Sequence record: NC_015700.1
Direction: 5' to 3' (one strand)
DNA from: a plasmid
DNA length: 12,160 nt
The notes beneath the pieces are model-generated. The model was not told where the DNA came from. It saw nothing but the letters and a program-made list of their open reading frames with translations, and ran no database searches. Below are positions 1 through 12,113 of the stretch, piece by piece. Position 1 is the stretch's first letter. Each line of letters opens with the position of its first letter. The position numbers and the translations under genes were made by a program.

Positions 1-91
1 GAACACATTTCCTAATAACTATTTATTTACTTTTTGAGATTACATTCAAAAAGTAAATGTTACCTTTTTCATTAAAAGGTAACGCCAAAAT

Positions 92-129
92 AAAAAATTC
101 CCAATGCCTTTTGGCAAAGGGAATTTTTT
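92..129. terminator. Bidirectional rho-independent terminator-like hairpin (AAAAAATTCCC...GGGAATTTTTT) just 3' of the 152..547 minus-strand gene
   Basis: Inverted repeat aattcccaatgcc / ggcaaagggaatt is flanked by an A6 run on one side and a T6 run on the other. It sits 22 bp past the stop of the minus-strand ORF ending at 152. A second 8-bp-stem hairpin, tacctttt-tcatt-aaaaggta, lies at 61-81. Confidence 0.6.
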
Positions 130-151
130 ACAATCCAGCTTTAACATTTAG

Positions 152-547
152 TTAATCTGGATTGTTCCCATTGGGAAATTCATTATCATGTAATGGATTC
201 TTTCCCAATGGTTTTGCGTGACTTTGTTCCTGCTGCTCTTGTTTTATTTTAGCCACAAATGCAGTCACAAAATCATGCAAATCTTTTTTCGCAAATGGCT
301 TTTGATCATCACCAATTTGCGAATTAATAATGCTGTTTAAGCGTTGCATTAAGTCATCATTATTGCTGGCCAAAGTTAGCATAGCTTCGGCCAATTCCGC
401 TTTCCATTTTAGTTCGTTTAAGGCTAAAACATCAGCGTTATGTTTCATCTGGAGCTTCTTATACTCCATATCTTCAGGAACAGTACGACCACTCAGTTTT
501 TTGGCTTTAAGTTCTTGCCAACGGGCAATTGATTTAGGGGACATCAT
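152..547 (-). CDS. Hypothetical 131-aa charged, predicted alpha-helical/coiled-coil protein, co-oriented 38 bp downstream of the antitoxin gene. No family recognised.
   Basis: Intact ORF with no internal stops. It is Lys/Glu/Gln-rich with a Gln-rich tail (QEQQEQ) and lacks a signal peptide. Only a weak SD-like stretch (GAAAGAAG) lies upstream. A terminator follows immediately after its stop. Confidence 0.45.
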   Translation of the reverse strand: MMSPKSIARWQELKAKKLSGRTVPEDMEYKKLQMKHNADVLALNELKWKAELAEAMLTLASNNDDLMQRLNSIINSQIGDDQKPFAKKDLHDFVTAFVAKIKQEQQEQSHAKPLGKNPLHDNEFPNGNNPD

Positions 548-585
548 GATAAAAACTTCTTTCTATTAAGTAATTAGATTAACTA

Positions 586-861
586 TTATGAGAAGTTAAC
601 AGTCAATCTCTTGCCCAAAGCGTTAGCAATTTTGGTTAAAGTATCAATACTGGTGTTAGCGCCGCTTTCAATTCGTGCAATTGTTGATTGAGGAACATCA
701 GAAACAGTAGCTAGATCTCGTTGAGAAAGGCCTGATTCTTTTCTAACCTTAGTTAATGCAATGGCACTCTCTAACTTAGTTGTTTCGTTTTCAAATTCCT
801 TTTTAAATGCCGGATCCTTTAATTGTTCATTTAAGTAGTCTTTAAAATTAATGTTGCTCAT
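586..861 (-). CDS. XRE-family HTH antitoxin (HigA-like addiction module antidote)
   Basis: 91 aa. The C-terminal half carries a classic XRE HTH (LSQRDLATVSDVPQSTIARIESGANTSIDTLTKIANALG). A good RBS (AAGGAG, 8-nt spacer) precedes it. The start lies 2 bp after the stop of the upstream toxin gene, so the two genes are arranged as an operon. Confidence 0.8.
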   Translation of the reverse strand: MSNINFKDYLNEQLKDPAFKKEFENETTKLESAIALTKVRKESGLSQRDLATVSDVPQSTIARIESGANTSIDTLTKIANALGKRLTVNFS

Positions 862-863
862 AA

Positions 864-1226
864 TTATTGCTCCTTTCGGTTGGCAAAGTATTCGTCACGT
901 AATTTCTTAGCATGATTAATTTCTCGTGGCGGTGTTTTCTGGGTTTTCTTAGTAAAGCCATGGGTAATAACGTAGTGAACGCCATCAACGTGAAAATAAA
1001 GGCCACGTTGTTGATTATTACTAACCCGAGAGCGAATTTCATAGAGGTTCTTCTCCAGTGGCTTAACCCAGTTATGTTGAATTCCAGCACTAAGTCCATA
1101 AGTTGCGACCATGTTAATCCGTGCTAATAACTTTGCTTTAGCTTTAACGTCAAGACTATCTAAATATTCTGCAAATTCAGTATGGCCATTAGGGCGAGTA
1201 TAAAATTCAAATTCTAAATCTTCCAT
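864..1226 (-). CDS. Type II toxin of the RelE/ParE superfamily, Gp49-like (HigB-type 'addiction module killer'), encoded upstream of its antitoxin
   Basis: 120 aa, basic, with the size and layout of the Gp49/DUF891 killer proteins that precede an XRE antidote gene (toxin first, as in HigBA). It is immediately followed by the XRE gene. A palindromic operator lies just upstream of the start. Confidence 0.7.
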   Translation of the reverse strand: MEDLEFEFYTRPNGHTEFAEYLDSLDVKAKAKLLARINMVATYGLSAGIQHNWVKPLEKNLYEIRSRVSNNQQRGLYFHVDGVHYVITHGFTKKTQKTPPREINHAKKLRDEYFANRKEQ

Positions 1227-1234
1227 GCCCTAAT

Positions 1235-1272
1235 GATAGCATATATTGTATCAATTATCAATATATGCTATC
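1235..1272. promoter_or_regulatory. Perfect 14-bp inverted repeat (GATAGCATATATTG - 10 bp - CAATATATGCTATC) 9 bp upstream of the toxin start. Likely the autoregulatory operator and promoter of the TA operon.
   Basis: Arms at 1235-1248 and 1259-1272 are exact reverse complements. The region is AT-rich with TATA-like hexamers inside, positioned immediately 5' of the toxin start codon (minus strand). Confidence 0.6.
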
Positions 1273-1301
1273 TAGAACAACTACCGTGCTTCGCTTGCTG
1301 G

Positions 1302-1350
1302 ACTCGTTAATCAGAACGGTTTATGACTAAACCTAACCTGATTAACGAGT
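1302..1350. repeat. 13-bp perfect inverted repeat (ACTCGTTAATCAG ... CTGATTAACGAGT) with a 23-bp spacer, between the recombinase 3' end and the TA promoter
   Basis: Arms at 1302-1314 and 1338-1350 are exact reverse complements. Possible recombination or resolution site, or a transcription barrier. Function not determinable from sequence. Confidence 0.5.
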
Positions 1351-1353
1351 GAA

Positions 1354-1367
1354 TTTTTTGGGGGGGG
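1354..1367. repeat. Homopolymeric tract T6G8 immediately 3' of the recombinase stop codon
   Basis: The sequence ttttttgggggggg is read directly. A G8 run is unusual in a roughly 35% GC backbone. Confidence 0.9.
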
Positions 1368-1372
1368 AGTGC

Positions 1373-1960
1373 TTAATCGAACTTAACTTCATCGAGCATT
1401 TGTTCTCGGCTGACTTGATCCAGACCTAAATATTTTAAGGTCATGGCTTCTGAGGAATGATTAAGCAGCGACATCACTAAACCGATATTGTAATGAGTTT
1501 GTGTGTAGACCCGGTAAGCCCCAGTTTTTCTCATTGTGTGAGTACCGAGGTAGTTAATCCCAAGTAAATCGCCAGTTTTAGCCATGATTTTGTAAAACTG
1601 TTTTTCAGTGATGTGCCGATCGGGGTGTTTAGTCGATGGAAAAAGCCAATCTGAGTGGAGATTTTGTTGGTTTAGCCACTGAAAATAGTCTTTTAGGTCT
1701 TGTTTAACTGGTTTTAGGTACAAAGTATTGGGCTTTCCGGTCTTTTTATCCCGAATATAAGCATTTTTAGCGATAGTCCCATCGTTATTGAAGATTTCAT
1801 TGCGTCTGAGAGCTAATAAATCGGACACTCGGAGTAACGTTGCCTTGCCAACTTGGAAAATTGTGTAATTTCGGCGGCCAGCTTTAAAATTATGTAGGAG
1901 AGTATCTTCGACTTCATGCAGGATATTGGAATCTTTGATGGGTAAAACGAGTTGTTTCAT
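1373..1960 (-). CDS. Small tyrosine site-specific recombinase/integrase (catalytic domain only, 195 aa)
   Basis: Conserved tyrosine-recombinase boxes are present: LRVSDLLALRR (Arg I), HTMRKTGAYRVY (H-x-x-R box II) and LNHSSEAMTLKY (terminal catalytic Tyr). A strong RBS (AAGGAG, 9-nt spacer) precedes it. The 195-aa size suggests it lacks an N-terminal core-binding domain, as is typical of plasmid multimer-resolution or integron-like small integrases. Confidence 0.85.
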   Translation of the reverse strand: MKQLVLPIKDSNILHEVEDTLLHNFKAGRRNYTIFQVGKATLLRVSDLLALRRNEIFNNDGTIAKNAYIRDKKTGKPNTLYLKPVKQDLKDYFQWLNQQNLHSDWLFPSTKHPDRHITEKQFYKIMAKTGDLLGINYLGTHTMRKTGAYRVYTQTHYNIGLVMSLLNHSSEAMTLKYLGLDQVSREQMLDEVKFD

Positions 1961-1979
1961 GATTAATTGCTCCTTATTT

Positions 1980-2090
1980 AGGGGCTACTTTTTGTATATA
2001 TAAATTAAAAGCCCCTATATTCTGATTGTAGAATACAGGGGCTTATTATATCAATGTTCTTTAGGGGCTATTTATAAGAAATAGCCCCTA
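1980..2090. repeat. Cluster of three hairpins carrying five copies of the heptamer AGGGGCT(A/T), immediately upstream of the recombinase gene
   Basis: Motif copies lie at 1980-1987, 2010-2016 (rc), 2037-2044, 2063-2070 and 2082-2089 (rc). Hairpin 1 spans 1980-2016 (GGGGCT/AGCCCC stem with an AT-rich loop). Hairpin 2 is TATTCT-gattgt-AGAATA at 2018-2035. Hairpin 3 at 2062-2090 is a perfect 12-bp stem (TAGGGGCTATTT / AAATAGCCCCTA) with a 5-nt loop. No T-run follows on either strand, so these are unlikely to be simple terminators. Confidence 0.7.
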
Positions 2091-2184
2091 CTTTAAAAAC
2101 GATGAAAATTAATCTTTACTTTTTAGTTTCCCATTCGTTGTTATATATGGGAGGAATAAAGTGAATAATACAAAATTCAATTGA

Positions 2185-2214
2185 AAATAAAAAAGGACAT
2201 CTTTTCAGATGTCC
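2185..2214 (-). terminator. Rho-independent terminator on the minus strand (GGACATCT-GAAA-AGATGTCC followed by a T-run), at the left boundary of the high-GC tet(W) segment
   Basis: On the minus strand an 8-bp perfect stem is followed by TTTTTTATTTTC. It lies about 350 bp downstream of the tet(W) stop and is the only clean intrinsic terminator between tet(W) and the recombinase. Confidence 0.7.
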
Positions 2215-2562
2215 CGCCGGCTCGGTAATCGGGAGCTACCCGATTCCAATTTGCACACCGACTTTATCATTTTGGTCGTGCCTAATAAACACGTTAAAAA
2301 ATCAATTAAAAAGGTGATTGCTCTGATTCGTAAGATGATGAAATAATATTGCTACTTTTTCTGCGCTGACTTCGGTTGGCGCTTTTTATTCAGAAACCTT
2401 TATAACAAATAGGCTTAAAACATAAAAAGAAGTATTAGCTCTTTGCTTTCCTGTTGTAATATTCGTCTGTTCCTGGTTCAAAATAGTTTCTCCTCTCTGA
2501 TACTGATTTTATCAATGATATTTCGCAATAGCCAGCAATGAACGCTTGCATTGCGCAAGACG

Positions 2563-4482
2563 TTACATTATCTTCTGAAACATATAGCGCACCTTGTCCA
2601 GGCGGCTGTTTGGACGGCGGGGCTGGATGACTGGCTTGCCGACAGCGGCCTGATACCCTTTCAGTTCTGTAAGGCATACGCTCTGCCCGTTGGTGTAAGA
2701 GGCCAGATCAGTACGGTATGCCTGTATACAGCGGGCGGGAATCTCGCCAGTAAAGACAACTTCATCCTTTTTTACCTGGACCGTTTCGATGGTGGCACAG
2801 TATTTCGGTGCATCATGATAAGCCCTGGAAAGATATTCCCGGGGCGCATAGAGGGTGAAGGAGAGATAAGGTTCCAGCAGTTGCGTCCCTGATTCCTTCA
2901 ATGCCTGTTCCAATACAATCGGGGCCAATGAGCGGAAGTCCGCCGGCGTGCTGACCGGACTGTAATAAAGCCCGTATTCAAAGCAAATCTTACAGTCCGT
3001 TACGTTCCAGCCGAACAAGCCCTGCTCCAGCCCGTAACGGATACCATCCCTGACAGCGTTTTGAAAACTCTGGTTCAAGTATCCCAGCGAAACCCGGCTC
3101 TCGTATTGTACACCGGAGCCAAGCGGGAGTGGTGTAACAGACAGTCCGATGGATGCCCAAAACGGGTTGGGCGGCACCTCGATATGGATGGTGTGGCTGG
3201 CTGCTTTGAGCGGCCGCTCCATATAAATGACGGTGGGTTCCTTTACCACTGTTTCAAGCTTGTATTTTTCCGACAGCAAAGCGGAAACAACCTCCAACTG
3301 CACCCGGCCCAAAAAAGAAAGAATGATCTCATGGGTGATGGAATCCACCTCGCAGCGCAAAAGCGGGTCAGTATCCGCAAGTTGCGTAAGAGCGTCCAGC
3401 AGCCGTTCTCTTTGCGCTGCCGTTTTCGGCGCAATCGACGTCCGCAGCATGGGGAGGGGGTCCTCACGCCACCTTTTACGAGGGAGCCGGGTTGGGTCCC
3501 CTAATACATCGTTTAACCTCACGCTGTCGCTGGGAAGGATAACAATTTCACCCGGATAAGCGGTGTCTGTCCGAACAATTTCCCCTTTGGATGGAATACG
3601 CATCTCTGTGATTTTCAGCTTTTCTCTCCCGGCCAGGGCCACCGTATCCCGCAGGCGCAGCGTTCCGCTGTATAGCCGTAGATAGACACGCCGCTGGCCG
3701 CAATCTGTATACTCCACCTTGAAAACGCTGCCGCATAGGGCGGCGCTCCCCTGTTCCCCAATCGGTTGGAACAGCCCTGTCACCGCATCCATCAACGGTT
3801 GAATGCCAAGGCCCTTTTTGGCGCTGCCATAATAGACCGGGAACAGGGAGGCGTCTTGAACCCGCCGCTGTTCCTCCCGCACAAGTTTTTCCCGGCTGAT
3901 TGGTTCTCCTGCGATATACTTTTCCAATAATTTATCGTTATTTTCGATGACCGCATCCCATGCTTCTATGTCGGTATTTTCCTCCAGGACTATTTCCGGG
4001 GACAGCGACACCGTCTGCTTGATGATAATATCGGCGGAGAGCTTATCCCGAACAGACTGAACCACGCTCTGCAAATCAACGCCAGCCTGGTCGATCTTGT
4101 TGATAAAGATAACGGTGGGAATGTTCATTTTCCGCAGGGCATGGAACAGAATACGGGTCTGGGCCTGCACGCCATCTTTAGCGGAGATCACCAAGATGGC
4201 CCCATCTAAAACAGCCAAAGAGCGGTACACCTCCGCCAAAAAATCCATGTGGCCGGGCGTATCCACAATGTTGACTTTACATCTGTGCCACTGGAAGGAA
4301 GTGACTGCCGCTTGAATGGTAATCCCACGCTGCCGCTCCAAAAACATGGTGTCCGTCCTCGTTGTCCCTTTTTTGACGCTCCCCGGTTCTGAAATGGCTC
4401 CGCTGGCATATAGCAGGCTCTCCGTCAAGGTCGTCTTTCCAGCGTCTACATGGGCAAGAATTCCAATATTGATTATTTTCAT
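2563..4482 (-). CDS. tet(W): Tetracycline resistance ribosomal protection protein Tet(W) (translational GTPase, EF-G-like)
   Basis: 639 aa. It has the N-terminal G-domain motifs ([18 protein letters not shown]). The full length matches my recollection of Tet(W) nearly residue for residue ([36 protein letters not shown]...[13 protein letters not shown]). An RBS (GGGAGGA) precedes the ATG. Confidence 0.95.
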
Positions 4483-4513
4483 GTGATTGTCCTCCCTTTA
4501 CTGCCCCGAAGGG

Positions 4514-4586
4514 CATAAAAATCCCCAGCAGTAAAATACTTTTACCACTGGGGATGATAATTTGCGGACATACACATATACAGCAT
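4514..4586 (-). promoter_or_regulatory. tet(W) 5' leader: a candidate 14-aa leader peptide ORF (4542..4586, MLYMCMSANYHPQW) overlapping a strong terminator/attenuator hairpin (4521-4555) followed by a U-run. A GCCC-UUCG-GGGC tetraloop hairpin lies at 4503-4514, just before the RBS.
   Basis: On the minus strand the order is: ATGCTGTATATGTGTATGTCCGCAAATTATCATCCCCAGTGGTAA, then ATCCCCAG..CTGGGGAT (8-bp outer stem plus 6-bp inner stem), then TTTTTAT, then GCCCTTCGGGGC, then AAGGGAGGA-N7-ATG. The 3' end of the leader ORF forms the 5' arm of the terminator. This is the architecture expected for translation-coupled attenuation, as described for ribosomal-protection tet genes. Confidence 0.6.
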
Positions 4587-5127
4587 ACACCTGTTTGTGA
4601 GTGCTGTTTTTGGGGATATGTCAAAATTGATAAGGCAAAAGTATTCTTTAATTGGGTACAAAAAACTAAGCCCCTACAAAAGGGACTATCATAATCCTTT
4701 GTTCCCACTATTTGATTATAGTTTTATTTAAGAATACCTTGCCGCATATTTTTTACTCCTTTTCTGGAATTGAATCATTATATCACATCAGTTTTAGGAA
4801 AACAAGTATATAAAAGAAATTTTTCTTCCCCTTATATGTAACAATCATACCGGCTTCCTAACGTTCAGAATGGTTTCTACTGTCTGCTGCGGTGTTTGGT
4901 TGGAATTGTCCAGCCAAAAGCCGATCCGTGGTGTTGTCTGCATTTTACTAAATACAAATTCAATGTATACAGAAAGAAATATATAAGGAGTGGGAGGGAT
5001 TCCGCCGTAGTCGGCATTGTAGGAAAATCCAAAAGTTTAGATTTTCTCAAAATGCTTATCTTTTGGTCTTTGGTTCGGAATAGTGTAGTGCTGGCGGTCT
5101 ATCTATTGTTTTCGGTTGCTTGCTTCT

Positions 5128-5418
5128 TTACCGTACATGAGCATTGTTATAAAAAGGTGTATCAACTACTTTTGTACCATCATAGCTAGGTACAGTGGTA
5201 GATGGTGCAATTGGTGTTGTTGTATCAGTAGCAGATGCTATACCTGTTTGAGTACCAGTAGCAGATGTGGTTTGAGCGTCGGCTGAAGCACTCATTCCCA
5301 TAAATGTGAAACCAATCAAAACCGAAGCAACTCCAATGGTTAATTTCTTAATCGTAAACCGTTGTTTATTCGGTTCTTGTTGCCGAACTTGTTCTTTCCA
5401 ATTATTCCTCGATAACAT
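5128..5418 (-). pseudogene. N-terminal fragment (96 aa) of a YSIRK-type signal-peptide cell-surface protein (adhesin/mucus-binding-like), truncated after a Ser/Thr-rich linker
   Basis: The N-terminus MLSRNNWKEQVRQQEPNKQRFTIKKLTIGVASVLIGFTFMG matches the YSIRK/KxYKxGKxW-type Gram-positive signal (FTIKKxxxGxxSxxIG). It has an excellent RBS (GGAGGG) and a consensus-like promoter. The ORF stops after 96 aa in a Thr/Ser-rich region, with no LPXTG, repeats or continuation in any frame. It is therefore most likely a truncated remnant next to the tet(W) island. Confidence 0.55.
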
Positions 5419-5455
5419 AATTGACCCTCCATAATATTATTTATTCTACACCCTC

Positions 5456-5484
5456 AATATAATACAACTCCTTGAATCTTTCAA
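5456..5484 (-). promoter_or_regulatory. Sigma-70-type promoter (TTGAAA - 17 bp - TATATT) for the YSIRK fragment, reading towards the tet(W) leader
   Basis: On the minus strand: TTGAAAgattcaaggagttgtatTATATT. The -35 lies at 5479-5484 and the -10 at 5456-5461, with an exact 17-bp spacer. The RBS and ATG of the YSIRK fragment follow about 35 bp further on. Confidence 0.55.
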
Positions 5485-5552
5485 ACTTATTTTTCGTGGA
5501 AATCGTTTCTAACTGTTTCCAACTGATAAACAAGTTGGTATATCTAAGTCTT

Positions 5553-5804
5553 CTAAATTTTACAATCTACCTTATCACTAAATACATCACCCATTTTTTC
5601 ATAATTAACCTTAGTTAATGGCGGGTACAGCATTAAGATTAAGCCAATTGCAATCGGAATAGACGTAGTTCCCACTGACCAACTGTTGATCAACTTAGGC
5701 AAGGAAGGGGAAATAAATCCACTTAAAATCCCAAGTGCCATAGCTAAAAACACCCATAGGGTCATGTAACGATCCATAAATAATAGGTTTTTCGACGTCT
5801 TCAT
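5553..5804 (-). pseudogene. Truncated 5' fragment (first ~78 codons) of a second ACR3-family arsenite efflux gene. Homology to the full copy ends abruptly at about 5570/5571.
   Basis: [78 protein letters not shown] is about 90% identical to residues 1-78 of the full acr3 copy at 6631..7665. It then diverges (…DK|VDCKI*) into unrelated sequence. Confidence 0.8.
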
Positions 5805-5866
5805 ATTAATCCCCTTCATATAGATAATTATCTATGTTTGCGGTAAAAATAAAAGGATTATCTTTT

Positions 5867-6169
5867 TTAATTAGCATCCTTACACATACAATTGTCAGTA
5901 TTGGACAGCGTACGGGTTAAGCCGTTAATAATAAGTGCAGTAGTGTCTGGATTTAATGAATAGTAATGCCATTTTGACTTCTTACTTACGATGACCAATC
6001 CTTTATCCTCTAATACTTTCATATGATGAGAAAGCGTTGGTTGGGTAAAATCAAAGTGATCAAGAATGTTGCAGGCACACATTTCACCACAGGAAAGCAT
6101 TTCAAGAATTTTAAGTCGATTTGGTTCAGCAACTACCTTAAGTAAGTTAGCTAATTTTTGATAATCCAT
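5867..6169 (-). CDS. arsR: ArsR/SmtB-family metalloregulatory repressor, second (diverged) copy
   Basis: 100 aa with an HTH and the metal-binding motif SCGEMCACNIL (ELCVCDL-like), plus a C-terminal CMC. It is about 80% identical to the copy at 7722..8033 and is followed by the truncated acr3. Confidence 0.8.
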   Translation of the reverse strand: MDYQKLANLLKVVAEPNRLKILEMLSCGEMCACNILDHFDFTQPTLSHHMKVLEDKGLVIVSKKSKWHYYSLNPDTTALIINGLTRTLSNTDNCMCKDAN

Positions 6170-6251
6170 TTACGTTACCTATTATGTAATAGTTGTACAT
6201 ATTGCCATAAATAATGCTGTTTAAACAGGGGTGATTCATTACAAATAGACC

Positions 6252-6625
6252 CTAAATTAATCCTTTAACTAATTGTTTAATCTCATCACGTACTTGTCGA
6301 AACACTACCATTTTCTGTTCAGGAGTACCTTTAGCTTGTGCGGGATCAGGTAACGGCCAATGAACGCTTTGGGCCTGAGAAGGAATCACCGAACAGCGGT
6401 CCCTAGCATCGCCGCATAAAGTCATAATTAAATCAGCTTTGATTTTTGCTGACTAATATCAATGCCGTCTTCAGCCATGGCCTCTACTGCGTAAGGATTA
6501 AGTCCGTGTTTTTCAACACCAGCACTTCTACATTCATATTGATCCTTGAGTAATGCTTTGCCATATCCTTCAGCCATTTGGCTACGACAAGAATTACCAG
6601 TACATAGGAAATAAATCTTTTTCAT
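6252..6625 (-). pseudogene. arsC: Thioredoxin-coupled arsenate reductase (LMW-PTP-type ArsC), disrupted by a frameshift and small deletion around 6425-6440
   Basis: The N-terminal 65 aa (6428..6625) carry the CX5R P-loop (CTGNSCRS) and end at KSKLI*. The C-terminal part ([60 protein letters not shown]) continues in a different reading frame down to the stop at 6252-6254. It contains the Cys82/Cys89 region. About 6-8 residues appear to be missing at the junction. Confidence 0.75.
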
Positions 6626-6630
6626 AGCTT

Positions 6631-7665
6631 TTAATAGAATTTTCTCTTAATCCATAATGCCACATCAACTAACAGAATCATCACTGGTACTTCGACCATG
6701 GGGCCAATAACGGCCGCAAATGCTTCTCCTGAACTTAATCCAAAGATACCAACGGTAACCGCCACGGCTAATTCAAAGTTGTTACTTGCAGCAGTAAATG
6801 ATTGGGTTGCGGAGATTGAATAACTAGTACCAGTCTTTTTAGCAATCCAAAAAGTAATAAAGAACATCAAAACGAAATAAAGTAATAAGGGAACAGCGAC
6901 ACGAACTGCGTCAAGTGGTAGTTCAACGACCCGCGCTCCTTTTACTGAGAACATAACTACTATAGTAAATAGTAAGGCCCAGGTAGTGATGCGACTAATC
7001 TTCGGAACATATTTATCTTCAAACCAGCCCCGACCTTTACTTTTAATAATCAAATAACGGGAACTAATGCCGAGGATAAATGGAATACCAAGGTAAATAA
7101 AAACCGTTTTAGCAATTTCACTCATTGTGATATTCACTGTTTGGGTTTGAATCCCAAAAAACTTAGGCAAAATACTGATAAAGAGGTAGGCATAAATCGA
7201 GTAGAAAATAATTTGGAAAATTGAATTAATCGCTACTAGCCCTGCTGCATAGTCATTATTACCGTGCGCAAGTTCATTCCACACAATGACCATTGCAATG
7301 CATCGTGCCAGACCAATCATAATTAAGCCAATCATGTAACTAGGATAATTTCGCAGAAAGATAATTGCTAATGCAAACATCAATAGTGGACCGACCACCC
7401 AGTTCTGAATTAATGAAAACGTAAGCTCCTTCTTATCACTGAAAACGTCTCCCATTTTCCCATAATTAACCTTAGTCAATGGTGGATATAACATTAGAAT
7501 TAAACCGATCGCAATTGGAATTGACGTCGTCCCAACCGACCAGCTATTGATTAGCTTAGGTAATGAAGGGAAAATAAAGCCACTTAAAATTCCTATTACC
7601 ATTGCTAAAAATACCCATAAAGTCATATAACGGTCCATAACTGATAAATTTCTTGATGTTTTCAT
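6631..7665 (-). CDS. acr3: ACR3-family arsenite efflux permease (start assigned to the internal Met preceded by AGGAGG)
   Basis: 344 aa from [16 protein letters not shown]..., polytopic and hydrophobic throughout. It lies between arsR and arsC in the classic operon order. A perfect RBS (AGGAGGAG) sits 7 nt before the ATG at 7663-7665. The ORF-track start at 7695 has no SD. Confidence 0.85.
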
Positions 7666-7721
7666 AGTAGCTCCTCCTAATATGTAAACGCTCATCTATG
7701 TATAAAACCAAGAGAAAAGGA

Positions 7722-8033
7722 TTAACATTGCTTGTTAGTAATTTTGCAAATGCAATCCTCAGTATTAGATAAGGTCTTAGACAGTCCATTAATAAGTAGC
7801 GCAGCTGTGTCTTGATTTAGAGAATAATGGTGCCACTTGCCCTTTTTAGTTACGTGGACTAGCTCCTCTTTTTCTAATACTTTCATATGGTGAGAAAGGG
7901 TAGGCTGAGTGAAATCAAAATTTTTGAGAATATCACAAGCACACATCTCTCCACAGGAAAGCATTTCAAGGATTTGTAACCGATTTGGTTCTGCAACGAC
8001 TTTTAACAAACTTGCTAGCTTTTGATAATCCAT
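7722..8033 (-). CDS. arsR: ArsR/SmtB-family metalloregulatory repressor, first gene of the complete ars operon
   Basis: 103 aa with an HTH and SCGEMCACDIL, plus a C-terminal CICKITNKQC. An RBS is present. Acr3 starts 56 bp after its stop. Confidence 0.85.
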   Translation of the reverse strand: MDYQKLASLLKVVAEPNRLQILEMLSCGEMCACDILKNFDFTQPTLSHHMKVLEKEELVHVTKKGKWHHYSLNQDTAALLINGLSKTLSNTEDCICKITNKQC

Positions 8034-8191
8034 TTACATTCCTTCTCACATAGACATTTATCTATATGATAGATTACTCTAACTTAGATGTAAACCTAAG
8101 TAGTGGAATTCTTTGCAGTTAAAGACCTGAAAGGAAGATATTAGGAAAATAAGCATGTAATAATTATTATCTTCACATCGTATTTCCGTCA

Positions 8192-8219
8192 TTTAGAGCG
8201 GAATTAGATATGCTACAAT
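8192..8219 (+). promoter_or_regulatory. Putative promoter with extended -10 (TTTAGA - 16 bp - TGcTACAAT) for the 8270..8824 gene, in the divergent intergenic region shared with arsR
   Basis: The hexamers were read directly. The gene start lies about 50 bp downstream. The assignment is weak. Confidence 0.3.
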
Positions 8220-8269
8220 GTAAATAAGCAAGTTACACTGTTTTCGATGGTCGGAAGAAGGTCGTAAAT

Positions 8270-8824
8270 ATGATGGAAGAAAAGTTATATACCATCAATG
8301 AAATTATTAAAGACGCAGGTATAGCCCGCTCTACATTTGATAAATTTGCTGAAGCCAATAACTTACGTCCAGTAAAGACAGAAAAGCGAGGGAAGAAGTT
8401 ATATTCCTTGAAAGACAAGGAATTTGTAGTTTCTCACTATGTAAGTGGAAAAGGGAAAGAAGAAAAAGAAAAATTCACTAATCACAAAGCCGAACGGCAT
8501 GATGAAGTCGTTGATTTACTTCGCGAACAGGTTCAGCAACTTAAGAGAGCCAACGAACAACTCGTCCATGACAATGACATTCTGACAGACCAACTGAAAG
8601 TTAAAGATAACCAGATTGCAGCCGCACATCAGCTAACCGACCAAGCACAAAAGTTGCATCTCGGACTAGAGAAACAGGTCAAAGCCCTCACAGGAGACGC
8701 TGACAAGCCCGTAGTGGATGGCGAATCATCTGATATAAATTCATCGAATAACCAACAGAAGCCCACAGACGAGCCTATGGGCACGAAAAAAGCCACCCGT
8801 AAATCGTGGTGGCATATCTTTTAG
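8270..8824 (+). CDS. Plasmid-associated DNA-binding protein: N-terminal HTH (excisionase/MerR-like, LYTINEIIKDAGIARSTF) plus a long coiled-coil. Possibly a RepB/DUF536-like or KfrA-like accessory protein.
   Basis: 184 aa with an intact ORF and a GAAGAAGG RBS. Its domain architecture (HTH followed by a charged coiled coil) is typical of plasmid replication or partition accessory proteins of lactic acid bacteria. The family assignment is tentative. Confidence 0.55.
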   Translation: MMEEKLYTINEIIKDAGIARSTFDKFAEANNLRPVKTEKRGKKLYSLKDKEFVVSHYVSGKGKEEKEKFTNHKAERHDEVVDLLREQVQQLKRANEQLVHDNDILTDQLKVKDNQIAAAHQLTDQAQKLHLGLEKQVKALTGDADKPVVDGESSDINSSNNQQKPTDEPMGTKKATRKSWWHIF

Positions 8825-8828
8825 TAAG

Positions 8829-9605
8829 TTAAATTTGAAATGTTGTTTTGACGGGAGTGATGTCGAGTGTATATCCGACAACCTTCCGTCCTTTTTTCTC
8901 TGTCGTAAGATAGAATATTGTCTTTGGATAAAGTTCTCCCAGTTCTTTTAAGCTAACGCCTAGAACCCGTTGCCGAAAACGACCAGCGCTCCATTTTCGC
9001 GGCTTTCCGTCATCATCAGTGCCTAGAAACCAGCTTTGCCATTCTGTAATACTTCCTCTAATAGTTGCCTTTTGAAGTTTGCCCATTGAATTAGCATTCC
9101 AAAGCTTAAGCAAAGTCAGCGTATACTTCGAGCGCACAGTTGCCAATTCTGAGAGCTTAAACGAGTAATAATTCTGCTTTAGTTCAAAAACAAATGGGGC
9201 AACCTTTTTGCTGAACTGGAATTCAATCTTCCCGTCCTCAACAATCTCAATGTAATCAAAGAGCGAAGTCATTAAAATTCCATTCATACCATTTTTGTAC
9301 GTCCGGAGATAAATGGCTGTTTTAGTGTTTAATGCTCGAAATGCTTCACCTACTCGCTGATAATTCTTCCCAGAACTATTCAGCCCCAGATGGCGAATAA
9401 TATCAATCATCTGGACAGTGTACGTATGGTCACTGGTATCTTCGGCTTTCACAAAGCTAAAGCAATAGTCAAGCACCTTGTGTTCAAATGTTGTTAGATT
9501 ACCAAATGACCGCGCGAGATCATTAGCCTGTGTAACTAAATAATTTTGGCGACTAAGTAAGTTGCTAATGGTTTTATCCATTTTCTTGTTCTGAACAACA
9601 GCCAT
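8829..9605 (-). CDS. rep: Rep_3-family (RepB-type) theta-replication initiator protein. The start is assigned to the internal Met (MAVVQNKK...) nearest the iterons.
   Basis: About 258 aa, with size and composition typical of iteron-binding Rep_3 initiators of lactobacillus/lactococcal theta plasmids. It is immediately preceded by 22-bp iterons. The ORF-track N-terminal extension (MDCTNMVEMIFLKYDIFFLGG) looks non-coding. Confidence 0.8.
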   Translation of the reverse strand: MAVVQNKKMDKTISNLLSRQNYLVTQANDLARSFGNLTTFEHKVLDYCFSFVKAEDTSDHTYTVQMIDIIRHLGLNSSGKNYQRVGEAFRALNTKTAIYLRTYKNGMNGILMTSLFDYIEIVEDGKIEFQFSKKVAPFVFELKQNYYSFKLSELATVRSKYTLTLLKLWNANSMGKLQKATIRGSITEWQSWFLGTDDDGKPRKWSAGRFRQRVLGVSLKELGELYPKTIFYLTTEKKGRKVVGYTLDITPVKTTFQI

Positions 9606-9672
9606 AATTCTGCCCCCCAAAAAAAATATATCATATTTTAAGAATATCATCTCTACCATATTTGTGCAATCC

Positions 9673-9770
9673 ATGGCATTAATGACGTACTAAAATGGCA
9701 TTAATGACGTACTAAAATGGCATTAATGACGTACTAAAATGGCATTAATGACGTACTAAAATGGTATTTA
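9673..9770. repeat. Iterons: four perfect tandem 22-bp direct repeats (ATGGCATTAATGACGTACTAAA) plus a degenerate partial fifth. Assigned as the origin of theta replication.
   Basis: Units at 9673-9694, 9695-9716, 9717-9738 and 9739-9760 are identical. 9761-9770 (atggtattta) is a partial copy. There are no spacers, so this is not a CRISPR array. It lies directly upstream of rep. Confidence 0.9.
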
Positions 9771-9777
9771 TTTTCGC

Positions 9778-9804
9778 CGAAACCCTTTAATCTCAAGGGT
9801 TTCG
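9778..9804. repeat. 10-bp perfect inverted repeat (CGAAACCCTT - taatctc - AAGGGTTTCG) adjacent to the iterons. An origin-associated IR.
   Basis: Read directly. The iterons-plus-IR-plus-AT-rich layout matches the lactococcal/lactobacillus theta-replicon ori organisation. Confidence 0.7.
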
Positions 9805-9813
9805 TACCCCTCT

Positions 9814-9900
9814 AATGTATATTAAATGTAATAATAATGTATTTACTTAATGTATGACCTTGGCAAACTGAGTAAAAAATAAACTCATACTAAAAAATTA
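9814..9900. promoter_or_regulatory. AT-rich origin region with helically phased AATGTA motifs (starts at 9814, 9825, 9836 and 9849; spacings of 11, 11 and 13 bp)
   Basis: Read directly. Phasing at roughly one helical turn in a stretch of more than 80% AT suggests intrinsic bending, an unwinding element, or sites for a host factor or secondary Rep binding. Confidence 0.45.
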
Positions 9901-9905
9901 TAGTT

Positions 9906-12017
9906 TCAACGTTGTAGATCATTATCTTGACTAAGTTGCTTATTAATGTTGTTTTTAAGTTGCTGATTAGTCCGTTGTAATTGTTCAGTGTTAGCAATTA
10001 ATATAGCTTTCTTTAGTTTAAGAACAGGATTATTTTCCAATTGTTCCTCTTTTAGGTGACTGAATGGGTGAATTGATGCTTGAATTGTATTTGGGTCTAT
10101 ATATGCACTGTGCAAATGATCTGGTTTTGTATTAGGTGTTGTTATTAAAACTTTTGTTGTTTCATTGATTAAGTTAATAGCTTCAATCTTGATTTTTTGG
10201 AGAACCTTGATTGCAGTATCCATAAGGTACTTTAGGGTTTGGCGTAAGTGTTGTTTACGTCCAATGTCAGAAATAACTGGTTGAGCTGTTTCATTGGGGT
10301 TTAGTAATGATGATCCAACCTTATGTTCAGGTGCATTCTCAGCAATGGTATCGACTAATTGGTTTTTGTAGTCGTTAATTTGGTTTTGTACGGTTGTATT
10401 CTCATTCTGGAGTTGCTGATTCTGGGTGGTTAATTGTTGGTTGGTAGTTGATAATTCAGTTTTGGTAGTACGGGCAGTAGTTATCTCTTGGTTTAGGTTA
10501 TCAAGTTCATCTTGATAGTCTTGTTTATCTGTTTCCCAATTATCTCGCTCTTCTTGACGCCAGGAATCTAATTCCTGTTCCATTTGGGTTACATTAGCTT
10601 CGGTTACTGTAATTGGTTGATCGTTGTTATCGAGTAAGTCGTTTTGGTCAATTTCTTTTTGGGCGGCTTTGATACGCTGGAGCTTGCGCTGCTTAATTTG
10701 TTCTTCAGCGTCGCTAATCTGATTTTGCAGGGTTTGTAATTGCTGCTGTTGCTGGGTCAGTTGTTGTTCCAATTGCTTCTGTTGGTTTTCAGCAGCTGTT
10801 TGCTTTTCTTGGGCTGCATCAGCGTCTTTTTCAGCTTGTTGTTTATCCCTCTGAGAGCTTCTAGCAGCCCTTGTAATGTCGTTTGCCATTTCTAAGGGTG
10901 AAAGGTCGTTACCGTCTTTATCGACCGCCTGATGGCCTGTGGTGGCTTCGTAGATGCCCTTTAGGTTCTGAGTGACGGTTGCTACTTGTGACTGGACATC
11001 ATTCTTTTGGTTAGTTAAGTTATCAGCTTGGTCTTGTAATGACTGAACTGCTTTTTGGTGGTCCGCAATTTCCTGATGTTGAGCTTTTAACTGTTCCATG
11101 GAAAGCCCGGTTTGTATGGTCTTATCTTCCTTGGTTTTACGTTCAAAATCGAGGATTTTTTTATTTTGCGGCACTTTATAGGTCTTATGTAGTTCATCTT
11201 CCAGGCATTTTAAGGCGAATTGGTCCATGTTAGTCCGAAACCATTTCGTAGCGTCACGTCCGGAACAGTATTTACCTGTAACGGCGTGATGGAGACTTAC
11301 TAAGGCCTGATTGAGTGAATTAGTCACGTGAGCGGCTCGCTTTTTACCGCCTCTGGTCATGCCAAAGGTAGCTAGTTCATAATGAATGTGAGAGATTCCC
11401 ATTTCATCGTTATTGGTGGCGTAGCGTCCTCGGTGTAAATAATCGCCAACGTGAATCCATTGTTGATGATTATTGTTTAGCTTCCAGCCAACATTGTTGT
11501 TAGTAGCTTTAATTAGGGCTCGATTGAAACAATCATAAAACTGCTTGGCAACTGCAATATTATCTGGGATTGGTTGTCCGTTTTGGTCCTTTAATTTGAA
11601 AACTAGGTGCGTAGTACCGTCTGGCAACTTTTCTTCCTGATAGGAAGTCTTGGGACAGAATTGTTGCATCAATTTGCTTTGGACTTCCATATTGCCAATA
11701 GTCAGGACAGCGGTGGCTTTCTTTTTCCGTTTAAGGTAGTTTTTAACGCTGCCATACTGCCGCTCAGCGTGTCCTTTTTCTCGTTGGTGCTTATCGTGTT
11801 CCTCAACATAGTCTTTGAAATGTTCATTGTTCCATTGGTCGATTGCTGCTCGTGTTTTCGGAGATTTATCATATTGATTAAATTGAGTTTCGCTGAACAC
11901 AATATCTTGGTTAGTGTGATTAATCTTTTTATCATGTTCAACGTGCTTTTGAATGCCAGAATAACCGTTCTTATCCTTGGCTTGTAAGTCAGTTGTTACC
12001 GTGCATTTAATCGACAT
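9906..12017 (-). CDS. mob: Mob_Pre/MobV-family plasmid mobilization relaxase with a long Q-rich coiled-coil C-terminal region
   Basis: The N-terminus MSIKCTVTTDLQAKDKNGYSGIQKHVEHDKKINHTNQDIV fits the MobV motif I pattern (MS...K..G..G..KH.ER....N.DI). An HxDE..PHxH-like motif III (NNDEMGISHIHYE) is present. It is about 700 aa with a QQ-rich coiled-coil tail. The start is uncertain: 12017 is preferred (GGTGA-like SD), with the alternative ATG at 12032. Confidence 0.8.
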   Translation of the reverse strand: MSIKCTVTTDLQAKDKNGYSGIQKHVEHDKKINHTNQDIVFSETQFNQYDKSPKTRAAIDQWNNEHFKDYVEEHDKHQREKGHAERQYGSVKNYLKRKKKATAVLTIGNMEVQSKLMQQFCPKTSYQEEKLPDGTTHLVFKLKDQNGQPIPDNIAVAKQFYDCFNRALIKATNNNVGWKLNNNHQQWIHVGDYLHRGRYATNNDEMGISHIHYELATFGMTRGGKKRAAHVTNSLNQALVSLHHAVTGKYCSGRDATKWFRTNMDQFALKCLEDELHKTYKVPQNKKILDFERKTKEDKTIQTGLSMEQLKAQHQEIADHQKAVQSLQDQADNLTNQKNDVQSQVATVTQNLKGIYEATTGHQAVDKDGNDLSPLEMANDITRAARSSQRDKQQAEKDADAAQEKQTAAENQQKQLEQQLTQQQQQLQTLQNQISDAEEQIKQRKLQRIKAAQKEIDQNDLLDNNDQPITVTEANVTQMEQELDSWRQEERDNWETDKQDYQDELDNLNQEITTARTTKTELSTTNQQLTTQNQQLQNENTTVQNQINDYKNQLVDTIAENAPEHKVGSSLLNPNETAQPVISDIGRKQHLRQTLKYLMDTAIKVLQKIKIEAINLINETTKVLITTPNTKPDHLHSAYIDPNTIQASIHPFSHLKEEQLENNPVLKLKKAILIANTEQLQRTNQQLKNNINKQLSQDNDLQR

Positions 12018-12113
12018 ATTATCATCACCCATATCGTAGTTTTGCTACCATCATTGTAACATATTCGGTAATAAGTAAAGTGGTTAACTTATCCAATTTA
12101 CTAGCTCCCTAGT

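Follow-up and report, generated by a model that had tools for sequence, protein, structure and literature searches.

The window analysed here is a plasmid stretch of 12,160 bp (NC_015700.1) in which tet(W), a gene for resistance to tetracycline, lies within a segment that ends at a terminal repeat of IME_Rho_tet, a known integrative mobilizable element (IME). The tet(W) coding sequence (CDS) occupies positions 2563–4482 on the minus strand and encodes a ribosomal protection protein (RPP) of 639 amino acids, as judged from the open reading frame (ORF) listing, NCBIfam and Pfam. The protein matches NCBIfam model NF033148 with 1281.9 bits (cut-off 1100) over residues 1–639 of 639, contains the EF-G-type Pfam domains GTP_EFTU, EFG_III, EFG_IV and EFG_C, and differs at 0–4 residues from plasmid copies that AMRFinder labels tet(W) (99.4–100% identity); the Tet(M) model reaches 1042, below its cut-off of 1420. 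An earlier note, made from the sequence alone, had proposed a full-length Tet(W), and the model match and the few residue differences bear this out. The gene of plasmid pJA144188, which differs at three amino acids, leads to higher tetracycline minimal inhibitory concentrations in Corynebacterium glutamicum (PMC3350403), and by this likeness the tet(W) of the window is predicted to provide tetracycline resistance.

The region upstream of tet(W) encodes a putative leader peptide of 14 codons (MLYMCMSANYHPQW; 4542–4586, minus strand), and a putative tetLP gene has been described 5' of tet(W) (PMC3350403). A hairpin scan revealed an attenuator-type terminator of 16 pairs followed by a T-run (4521–4555, minus strand), located 39 nt upstream of the tet(W) start codon; the last part of the leader ORF extends into it. 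Leader ORF and hairpin together have the layout of a translation-coupled attenuator, by which tet(W) expression may be regulated. In the near-identical region of pJA144188, tetracycline induces tet(W) transcription 52-fold (PMC3350403). No Rfam family matches anywhere in the window, and the leader is therefore without a curated RNA model.

The tet(W) CDS differs strongly in composition from its surroundings, with a GC content of 0.531 and a GC content at third codon positions (GC3) of 0.614, compared with a GC content of 0.36–0.38 for the rest of the window and a GC3 of 0.23–0.41 for the backbone genes. This contrast is real and confined to the coding sequence. The leader, which the earlier note had counted with the CDS as GC-rich, has a GC content of 0.390 at 4483–4700 and 0.366 at 4701–5145 (0.374 for 4483–5145 as a whole). 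GC and GC3 profiles, which had been suggested for fixing the borders of the island, thus mark the CDS and fail on the right side, because the 663-nt leader and upstream region is backbone-like in GC content.

Limits of the acquired segment and the empty site

The borders were fixed by homology. BLAST comparison of the window with ten plasmid loci from L. reuteri, L. oris, L. amylovorus, Corynebacterium and Cutibacterium acnes revealed a common tet(W) block with a left limit between 2442 and 2568 and a right limit at 5145. The right limit is sharp: seven contexts and the window read ...CCGTACATGAGCATT up to 5145 and then enter eight unrelated flanks, and homology stops at this base in every plasmid context that reaches that far, each with its own flank. 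The same right-hand limit is seen in at least 120 loci of species-representative genomes. The left limit is ragged among the plasmid contexts (2442, 2473, 2482, 2512 and 2568), and the divergence of the C. acnes plasmid pTZC1 (L005) at 2563 reflects a difference between two element variants and not a truncation.

In the window, these homology limits and the collinear flanks described below define an acquired segment of 2,704 bp (2442–5145, minus strand), a partial IME_Rho_tet(W) that holds the 5' terminal inverted repeat (TIR) of the element, tet(W) with the 663 nt of upstream and leader sequence before it, and 121 nt downstream of the gene. The downstream part includes the first 13 codons of a gene for an XRE-type helix-turn-helix (HTH) protein of the HTH_3 family (LNQEQTNITTGKQ; 2442–2481, minus strand), a remnant recognised by comparison with the intact gene. 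The HTH_3 gene is whole in loci L078 and L134 (129–151 amino acids), and plasmids pTE15 and pLRI04 keep a 5' fragment of 56 amino acids; in the window the break follows codon 13, at 2441/2442. Over its 2,704 bp, the segment is 99.7–99.8% identical to complete-variant loci L078, L101 and L117. The nearest complete copies of this variant among the matches listed are found in Bacillota (Massilicoli, Ca. Scatomonas and Clostridiales Family XIII), so that the cross-phylum acquisition suggested earlier finds no support for the proximate step.

The plasmid CP125631 of L. oris (L011) lacks tet(W) and is collinear with the window on both sides of the segment. The earlier note had rightly seen tet(W) as acquired horizontally by a lactobacillus-type plasmid. 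Identity to L011 is 97.5% for window positions 1–2276, 99.4% for 2264–2443, 93–94% for 5144–5228 and 5257–6247, and 97.3% for 6235–12032. In place of the tet(W) block L011 has 2,854 bp, consisting of the 3' 2.4 kb of an intact gene for a YSIRK-signal protein of 1,229 amino acids and 447 bp downstream of it. At the right junction the window has ACATGAGCA-TT-GTTATAAAAAGG, where the empty site of L011 has CCTCGAGAG-TT-GTTATAAAAAGG. The left junction (2442–2443), as aligned to L011 and to the element, reads GTATTAGCTC-TT-TGCTTTCC in the window, GTATTAGCTC-TT-GGAGGG in L011 (plasmid side GCTC-TT) and GACGTA-TT-TGCTTTCC in the interior of the IME. Only the TT is common to plasmid and element at both junctions, the comparison of window and L011 shows no target-site duplication at either of them, and 2,854 bp are gone; the event was therefore a replacement without target duplication.

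Outside the segment, the right junction abuts what is left of the YSIRK surface-protein gene, as the earlier note had recognised: an ORF of 96 amino acids (5128–5418, minus strand), identified by the Pfam YSIRK_signal match, its translation and the intact homologue in L011. On the left, the DNA between the integrase gene and the junction (2177–2441) is intergenic backbone that is 98–99% identical to CP125631 and lay downstream of the YSIRK gene in the ancestor. It includes an intrinsic-terminator-like hairpin (2194–2215, minus strand), found in the hairpin scan with its T-run 3' on the minus strand. This hairpin had been taken for the left boundary of the island. It does exist (2215 to 2194 on the minus strand); since it lies 228 bp outside the left junction, in DNA that is shared with the tet(W)-free L011, it belongs to the backbone and bounds nothing. 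The limits proposed earlier, 2190–4870, thus miss the true ones by about 250 bp on the left side and about 275 bp on the right side, since the GC content of a quarter of the acquired DNA is like that of the backbone. As this case shows, borders of acquired DNA that are drawn from a GC profile alone are misplaced; a quarter of the island is host-like in composition.

The 99.7%-identical tet(W) variant is also carried by several plasmids of L. reuteri, L. oris and L. amylovorus. The junctions might therefore have arisen outside this plasmid lineage, with homologous or illegitimate recombination bringing in a ready-made truncated tet(W) fragment from a different Lactobacillaceae replicon. Such exchange is suggested by pTE15 and pLRI04, which have the same left flank (HTH'-adhP) and different right flanks, a pattern that indicates reshuffling of flanks by crossovers inside tet(W). 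For this plasmid, however, the sequence on both sides of the block follows one tet(W)-free plasmid, L011, base for base, the backbone contains the continuation of the interrupted YSIRK gene, and either junction is found in no other record except copies of the plasmid itself. We therefore consider such an import improbable.

A search for short direct repeats at the junctions, which had been recommended, yielded besides the TT an imperfect direct repeat of 19 nt (15 of 19 positions identical) just outside both junctions, at 2422–2440 and 5149–5167. Both copies are already present in L011 and no wider homology surrounds them. A match of 15/19 is reached by 1 in 3,000 random position pairs at equal spacing (P about 3e-4).

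The right end and the complete element IME_Rho_tet

The right end of the segment (5122–5145, minus strand) is the 5' TIR of IME_Rho_tet, AATGCTCATGTACGGTAAAGAAGC, and forms an attR-type junction with the plasmid. The at least 120 loci in species-representative genomes were recovered with a 20-mer from 5085–5104, and all loci listed stop at the same base, ...CATGAGCAT(T), with two of them reading ...GCATA. Beyond this end there are at least 106 distinct flanks, with the consensus NNCNCC-GGG-NTTNTC; among the loci listed, G is present at +8 in 98 of 108 and at +9 in 87 of 108. The insertions repeatedly hit the sequence for ...GYGNDNPGA within a small ORF of the Pfam family Maff2, which adjoins a gene for a VirD4-type coupling protein in L022 and L119. 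The last five codons and the stop of the truncated YSIRK ORF (NAHVR*) come from the 5' TIR (5128–5145), and the same TIR-encoded NAHVR* closes Maff2 at natural insertion sites.

An insertion sequence (IS), a composite transposon or the tyrosine recombinase of the plasmid could also be considered as the agent of insertion. A Phage_integrase-family gene for a small tyrosine recombinase of 195 amino acids (1373–1960, minus strand) lies about 480 bp to the left of the block, and IS elements accompany tet(W) elsewhere (IS1182 in L003; IS3 and IS1628 in Corynebacterium). Against this, the gene belongs to the backbone and is equally placed in the tet(W)-free relatives L008, L009 and L011. No transposase ORF, IS, TIR pair or target-site duplication was found around 2442–5145, in agreement with the earlier note, which had seen no transposase, IS or other mobility gene at either junction; target DNA was deleted, and the right end is a serine-recombinase site with at least 106 unrelated flanks. 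Insertion by one of these agents is thus highly improbable. The acquisition mechanism had been regarded as not evident; the exact 5' TIR of a serine-recombinase element at the right junction now points to one.

IME_Rho_tet was described by Sidibé, Doublet and Leclercq (Microb Genom 2026; PMC12904643). The canonical copy, of 10.7 kb, resides in Roseburia hominis A2-183, and the element carries a relaxase, mobC, a serine recombinase, an S-adenosylmethionine (SAM)-dependent methyltransferase and tet(W) or tet(32) (PMC12904643). It has TIRs of 21 bp, and in 80% of cases about 656 bp separate its 5' boundary from tet(W), which lies downstream; 45% of the elements are integrated in MAFF2 ORFs (PMC12904643). 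The authors counted 504 complete and 1,090 partial elements, defining as partial an RPP gene linked to one or both TIRs within 6 kb; complete elements with tet(W) are confined to Bacillota and mainly to Clostridia, whereas of the partial tet(W) elements, about 792 in number, a quarter belong to Lactobacillus and Limosilactobacillus (PMC12904643). The window is a partial IME_Rho_tet in this sense, with the 5' TIR ending 663 nt upstream of the tet(W) ATG.

The complete element was reconstructed from genomic loci. Four loci have 6.4–6.8 kb from the 5' end in common, with 99–100% identity and four different flanks, so that the mobile unit must be large. Its interior encodes a SAM-methyltransferase, a sigma-70-region-4 protein, HTH_16, MobC/NikA, a relaxase, Cys_rich_VLP and RepA_N, and relaxase and mobC are present in L022, L134 and L175. 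A metagenome scan with the RepA_N protein yielded complete copies. In L175, an element of 11,178 bp is located between two halves of a maff2 gene, in the order Maff2 N-part, 5' end, tet(W), interior genes, IstB/DnaC-like protein and large serine recombinase (9581–11197; Resolvase, Recombinase, Zn_ribbon_recom and DUF4368 domains). About 90 bp past the recombinase the sequence reads ...CACACATAAGCA-AA-GAGCCAGGGC, which is the Maff2 C-part, and beyond it follow the TrbL, PrgI and VirB4-like genes of a host integrative conjugative element (ICE). The 3' end is constant in 24 copies, always TT-TGCTTATGTG (TT-TGCTTATGTGTGATAAAGAAGC, in the window orientation). The gene order of IME_Rho_tet is therefore 5' TIR, leader, tet(W), the HTH gene in some copies, SAM-methyltransferase, sigma-like factor and MobC, followed by relaxase, Cys-rich protein, RepA_N, DnaC-like protein, large serine recombinase and 3' TIR.

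Two candidates were rejected in this reconstruction. The Subdoligranulum 'plasmid' OY725880, considered as a source of the complete element, carries an 88% tet(W) variant and has no TIR and no annotation. The view of the element as a large conjugative element was likewise abandoned, as the type IV secretion system genes past the L175 recombinase belong to the host ICE with the interrupted maff2.

The 5' TIR matches the 3' end of the element, TTTGCTTATGTGTGATAAAGAAGC, at 18 of 24 positions. Natural attL and attR both contain AA/TT, and the reconstructed attP, ACATAAGCA-AA-TGCTCATGT, has a dyad of 8/9. From these two features we infer that AA, which corresponds to TT on the plus strand of the window (5144–5145) and is common to the element end and the plasmid target, is the crossover dinucleotide.

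Compared with IME_Rho_tet, the window has the same 5' TIR, the upstream region of about 0.66 kb and tet(W), and the complete elements reconstructed here (L175 and others) match the gene content and the MAFF2 target published in PMC12904643. The window differs in what it lacks: no relaxase or mobC ORF and no large serine recombinase is present by ORF listing and Pfam, and the 3' TIR finds no match in the window at up to three mismatches. These losses explain why no mobility gene is visible. The variant in the window is also distinguished by an additional HTH_3 gene, which is placed between tet(W) and the methyltransferase and has only 13 codons left here.

Serine-recombinase IMEs are known to target maff2-related genes of Tn5252-superfamily ICEs (review, PMC5704250). 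IME_Rho_tet shares with IME_ScoC232_maff2_site1 and IMESp2907 the large serine recombinase, the relaxase, genes of the replisome-organizer and DnaC types, and site-specific insertion inside maff2, but these elements have other cargo and streptococcal hosts. The cargo of IMESp2907 is erm(TR). In contrast to these IMEs, the window holds only a terminal fragment, which is not in maff2.

The conserved surroundings of tet(W) had attracted attention before, and Kazimierczak et al. in 2006 reportedly delimited a conserved core with 657 bp upstream and 43 bp downstream of the gene. According to PMC12904643, these 657 nt correspond to the stretch up to the 5' TIR. Schröder et al. defined a tet(W) core of 2,323 bp in 2012 (PMC3350403). 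The window contains the same conserved block; the difference is that the earlier core papers did not recognise its upstream limit as a recombination site.

Three observations on the 5' end concern other genomes. The exact 5' TIR is present, among the loci listed, in metagenome-assembled genomes (MAGs) labelled Gastranaerophilales, Spirochaetales, Lentisphaeria, Saccharibacteria, Victivallales and Kiritimatiellae (L032, L065, L066, L071, L077, L089 and L128). These labels fall outside the two phyla screened in PMC12904643, and either a wider host range or binning errors may account for them. In Flavonifractor sp. An306 (L070, 5222–6721 in window orientation), Maff2 residues 5–43 form an in-frame fusion with a second ORF for a large serine recombinase, which directly adjoins the 5' TIR of the IME; this suggests that the same maff2 gene is occupied by two different serine-recombinase elements. 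In an Acetatifactor MAG (L015, 1–3453 in window orientation), only the last 102 bp of the 5' end are common, and unannotated ORFs of 459 and 149 amino acids follow, the starts of which by eye resemble a MATE-type transporter and a MarR-type regulator. As these ORFs differ and no ribosomal protection gene stands behind the IME end in L015, the same end carries different cargo.

Origin of the truncated copy

It is highly probable that the segment 2442–5145 represents the 5'-terminal 2.7 kb of IME_Rho_tet, joined to the plasmid by the recombinase of the element, and that the rest was deleted later. The source would be an integrative mobilizable element of about 11 kb from gut Clostridia. In a first step, the serine recombinase would have joined attP to a TT inside the YSIRK gene of an L. 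reuteri / L. oris-type plasmid with arsenic resistance and so produced the exact junction at 5145. In a second step, a deletion would have taken away the other 8–9 kb or so of the element with its recombinase, its relaxase and its 3' TIR, as well as 2,854 bp of plasmid DNA; the junction at 2441–2443 would be the endpoint of this deletion. What remains is a predicted functional, attenuator-controlled tet(W) that would no longer be able to move alone.

Several points weigh against this sequence of events. With a weight matrix derived from natural flanks, the two plasmid sites rank only 353 and 626 among the 3,390 TT sites of L011, and a sequence-directed recombinase event is thus not demonstrated for this plasmid. 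The full element is present in none of the Lactobacillaceae records examined, and PMC12904643 likewise reports no complete IME_Rho_tet in Lactobacillaceae, so that the intermediate is hypothetical. At least six different right-hand flanks adjoin the exact TIR in Lactobacillaceae plasmids, which means that the same half of the element would have been lost repeatedly, for reasons that are unexplained. The reshuffling of flanks seen in pTE15 and pLRI04 lowers the number of separate losses needed, but the problem remains. In addition, the 5' boundary lies 663 nt from the ATG here and about 656 bp from tet(W) in PMC12904643, a gap that probably reflects a different way of measuring.

The left breakpoint allows a different proposal, namely that this junction was also made by the recombinase, through an internal look-alike of the 3' TIR (TT-TGCTTTCC at 2442). 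The stretch 2442–5145 would then be a recombinase-delimited mini-unit and no product of random decay. Either integration was followed by a site-specific deletion in which pseudo-sites recombined, or the unit arose as a small circle for which a complete IME provided mobilisation in trans. The breakpoint consists of TT and a 5-nt exact match to the 3' TIR (TTTGCTT, the first 7 nt); it ranks second among 595 TT positions, and just three occurrences of TTTGCTT are present in the 6.4 kb of the element interior. Over 24 nt, the breakpoint matches the 3' TIR at 13 positions, a value equalled by only 13 of 6,407 interior positions, and the junction GCTCTTTGCTT (GCTC-TT-TGCTT) is identical over 11 nt to the natural attL of L175, L183, L195 and L207. 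A partial element from Collinsella (L039) breaks within 1 nt of the best-scoring look-alike site.

Internally deleted mini-elements with both true TIRs, from Collinsella and from pTZC1, also speak for this proposal. The unit in Collinsella sp. (L108, 2304–5148 in window orientation) has a length of 2,845 bp and joins IME positions 1–286 to 8584–11178, and the unit in C. acnes pTZC1 (L005, 2214–5578) measures 3,365 bp and joins positions 3–529 to 8338–11178.

The match of the look-alike, noticed post hoc, covers about seven core-proximal bases, whereas serine-recombinase sites span 40–50 bp, and the L039 break is out of register by 1 nt. Other left junctions in Lactobacillaceae and Corynebacterium (L001/L010, L002, L003 and L004) lack TT or TIR-like sequence, a unit with this left end is found in this plasmid only, and the outcome is a 2.85-kb replacement instead of a simple insertion. 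We therefore regard recombination at the look-alike as a tentative and rather doubtful explanation of the left junction; that serine-recombinase crossovers delimit the 2.7-kb tet(W) unit at both ends, one at the true 5' TIR TT and one at the look-alike TT, appears unlikely. The 19-nt imperfect repeat outside the junctions might belong to the same story. If the proposal held, the partial IME_Rho_tet of Lactobacillaceae would be aberrant recombinase products on pseudo-ends and not remnants of random decay, such units might still be excised or moved in trans by the recombinase of a complete IME, and the fixedness of tet(W) in probiotic lactobacilli would again be questionable.

The feature is ordinary and already known: the resistance gene is known, so is the element of which it occupies a truncated copy, and the plasmid is most likely a well-known one. 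As the family of elements, truncated Lactobacillaceae copies included, was described in 2026, nothing new is offered beyond a reconstruction at the level of single bases. The accessible part of PMC12904643 does not describe the junctions between element and plasmid or the empty site of this plasmid. The additions made here are the empty site, the 2,854-bp replacement, the TT at both junctions and a modest hypothesis for the left end. With regard to the earlier note, its observation is thus partly confirmed and its interpretation partly supported.

The plasmid and its backbone

The window is 100% identical to NBBF01000066.1 (12,287 bp), the ends of which overlap by 127 bp, and it therefore represents a closed circle of 12,160 bp. 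The exact plasmid is also present in assemblies GCA_002112805.1 and GCA_925285275.1. Plasmid pLR581 of L. reuteri ATCC 55730 / SD2112 has a size of 12.2 kbp (PMC9930590); it is the tet(W) plasmid of this probiotic strain, which was cured to give DSM 17938. The Tet(W) of the window differs from that of pJA144188 at three residues, the number stated for pLR581 by Schröder et al. (PMC3350403). From the size, the circularity and this substitution count, the window is very probably pLR581 (record EU583804).

The practical question is the onward movement of tet(W) from a probiotic-type lactobacillus. The fragment in the window has kept one recombination end and has lost the recombinase, the relaxase and the other end, and the closest relatives of the plasmid are typed as non-mobilizable. 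Egervärn et al. reportedly observed a low transferability for this plasmid, with which the single remaining end and the non-mobilizable relatives are consistent.

Compared with CP125631, the window has a 112-bp deletion at 2264–2276, and the deleted stretch is flanked in CP125631 by 14-nt direct repeats (CTTATCATTTTGGT). Beside the full arsR-arsB-arsC set (6252–8033) there is a second, partial arsR-arsB' (5553–6169), which consists of an 88-amino-acid N-terminal fragment of arsB and an ArsR of 100 amino acids. The arsC of the window is broken after ...QQKSKLI when compared with the intact ArsC of pLRI03, which has 133 amino acids.

Positions 9673–9768 contain 4.4 tandem copies of a 22-bp unit (98% matches), which adjoin a gene for a Rep3-family initiator (8829–9674) and are probably iterons. 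An ORF of 708 amino acids (9906–12032) encodes a Q-rich, apparently coiled-coil protein that has no match in Pfam or NCBIfam; its homologues on related plasmids are annotated as 'replication protein'.

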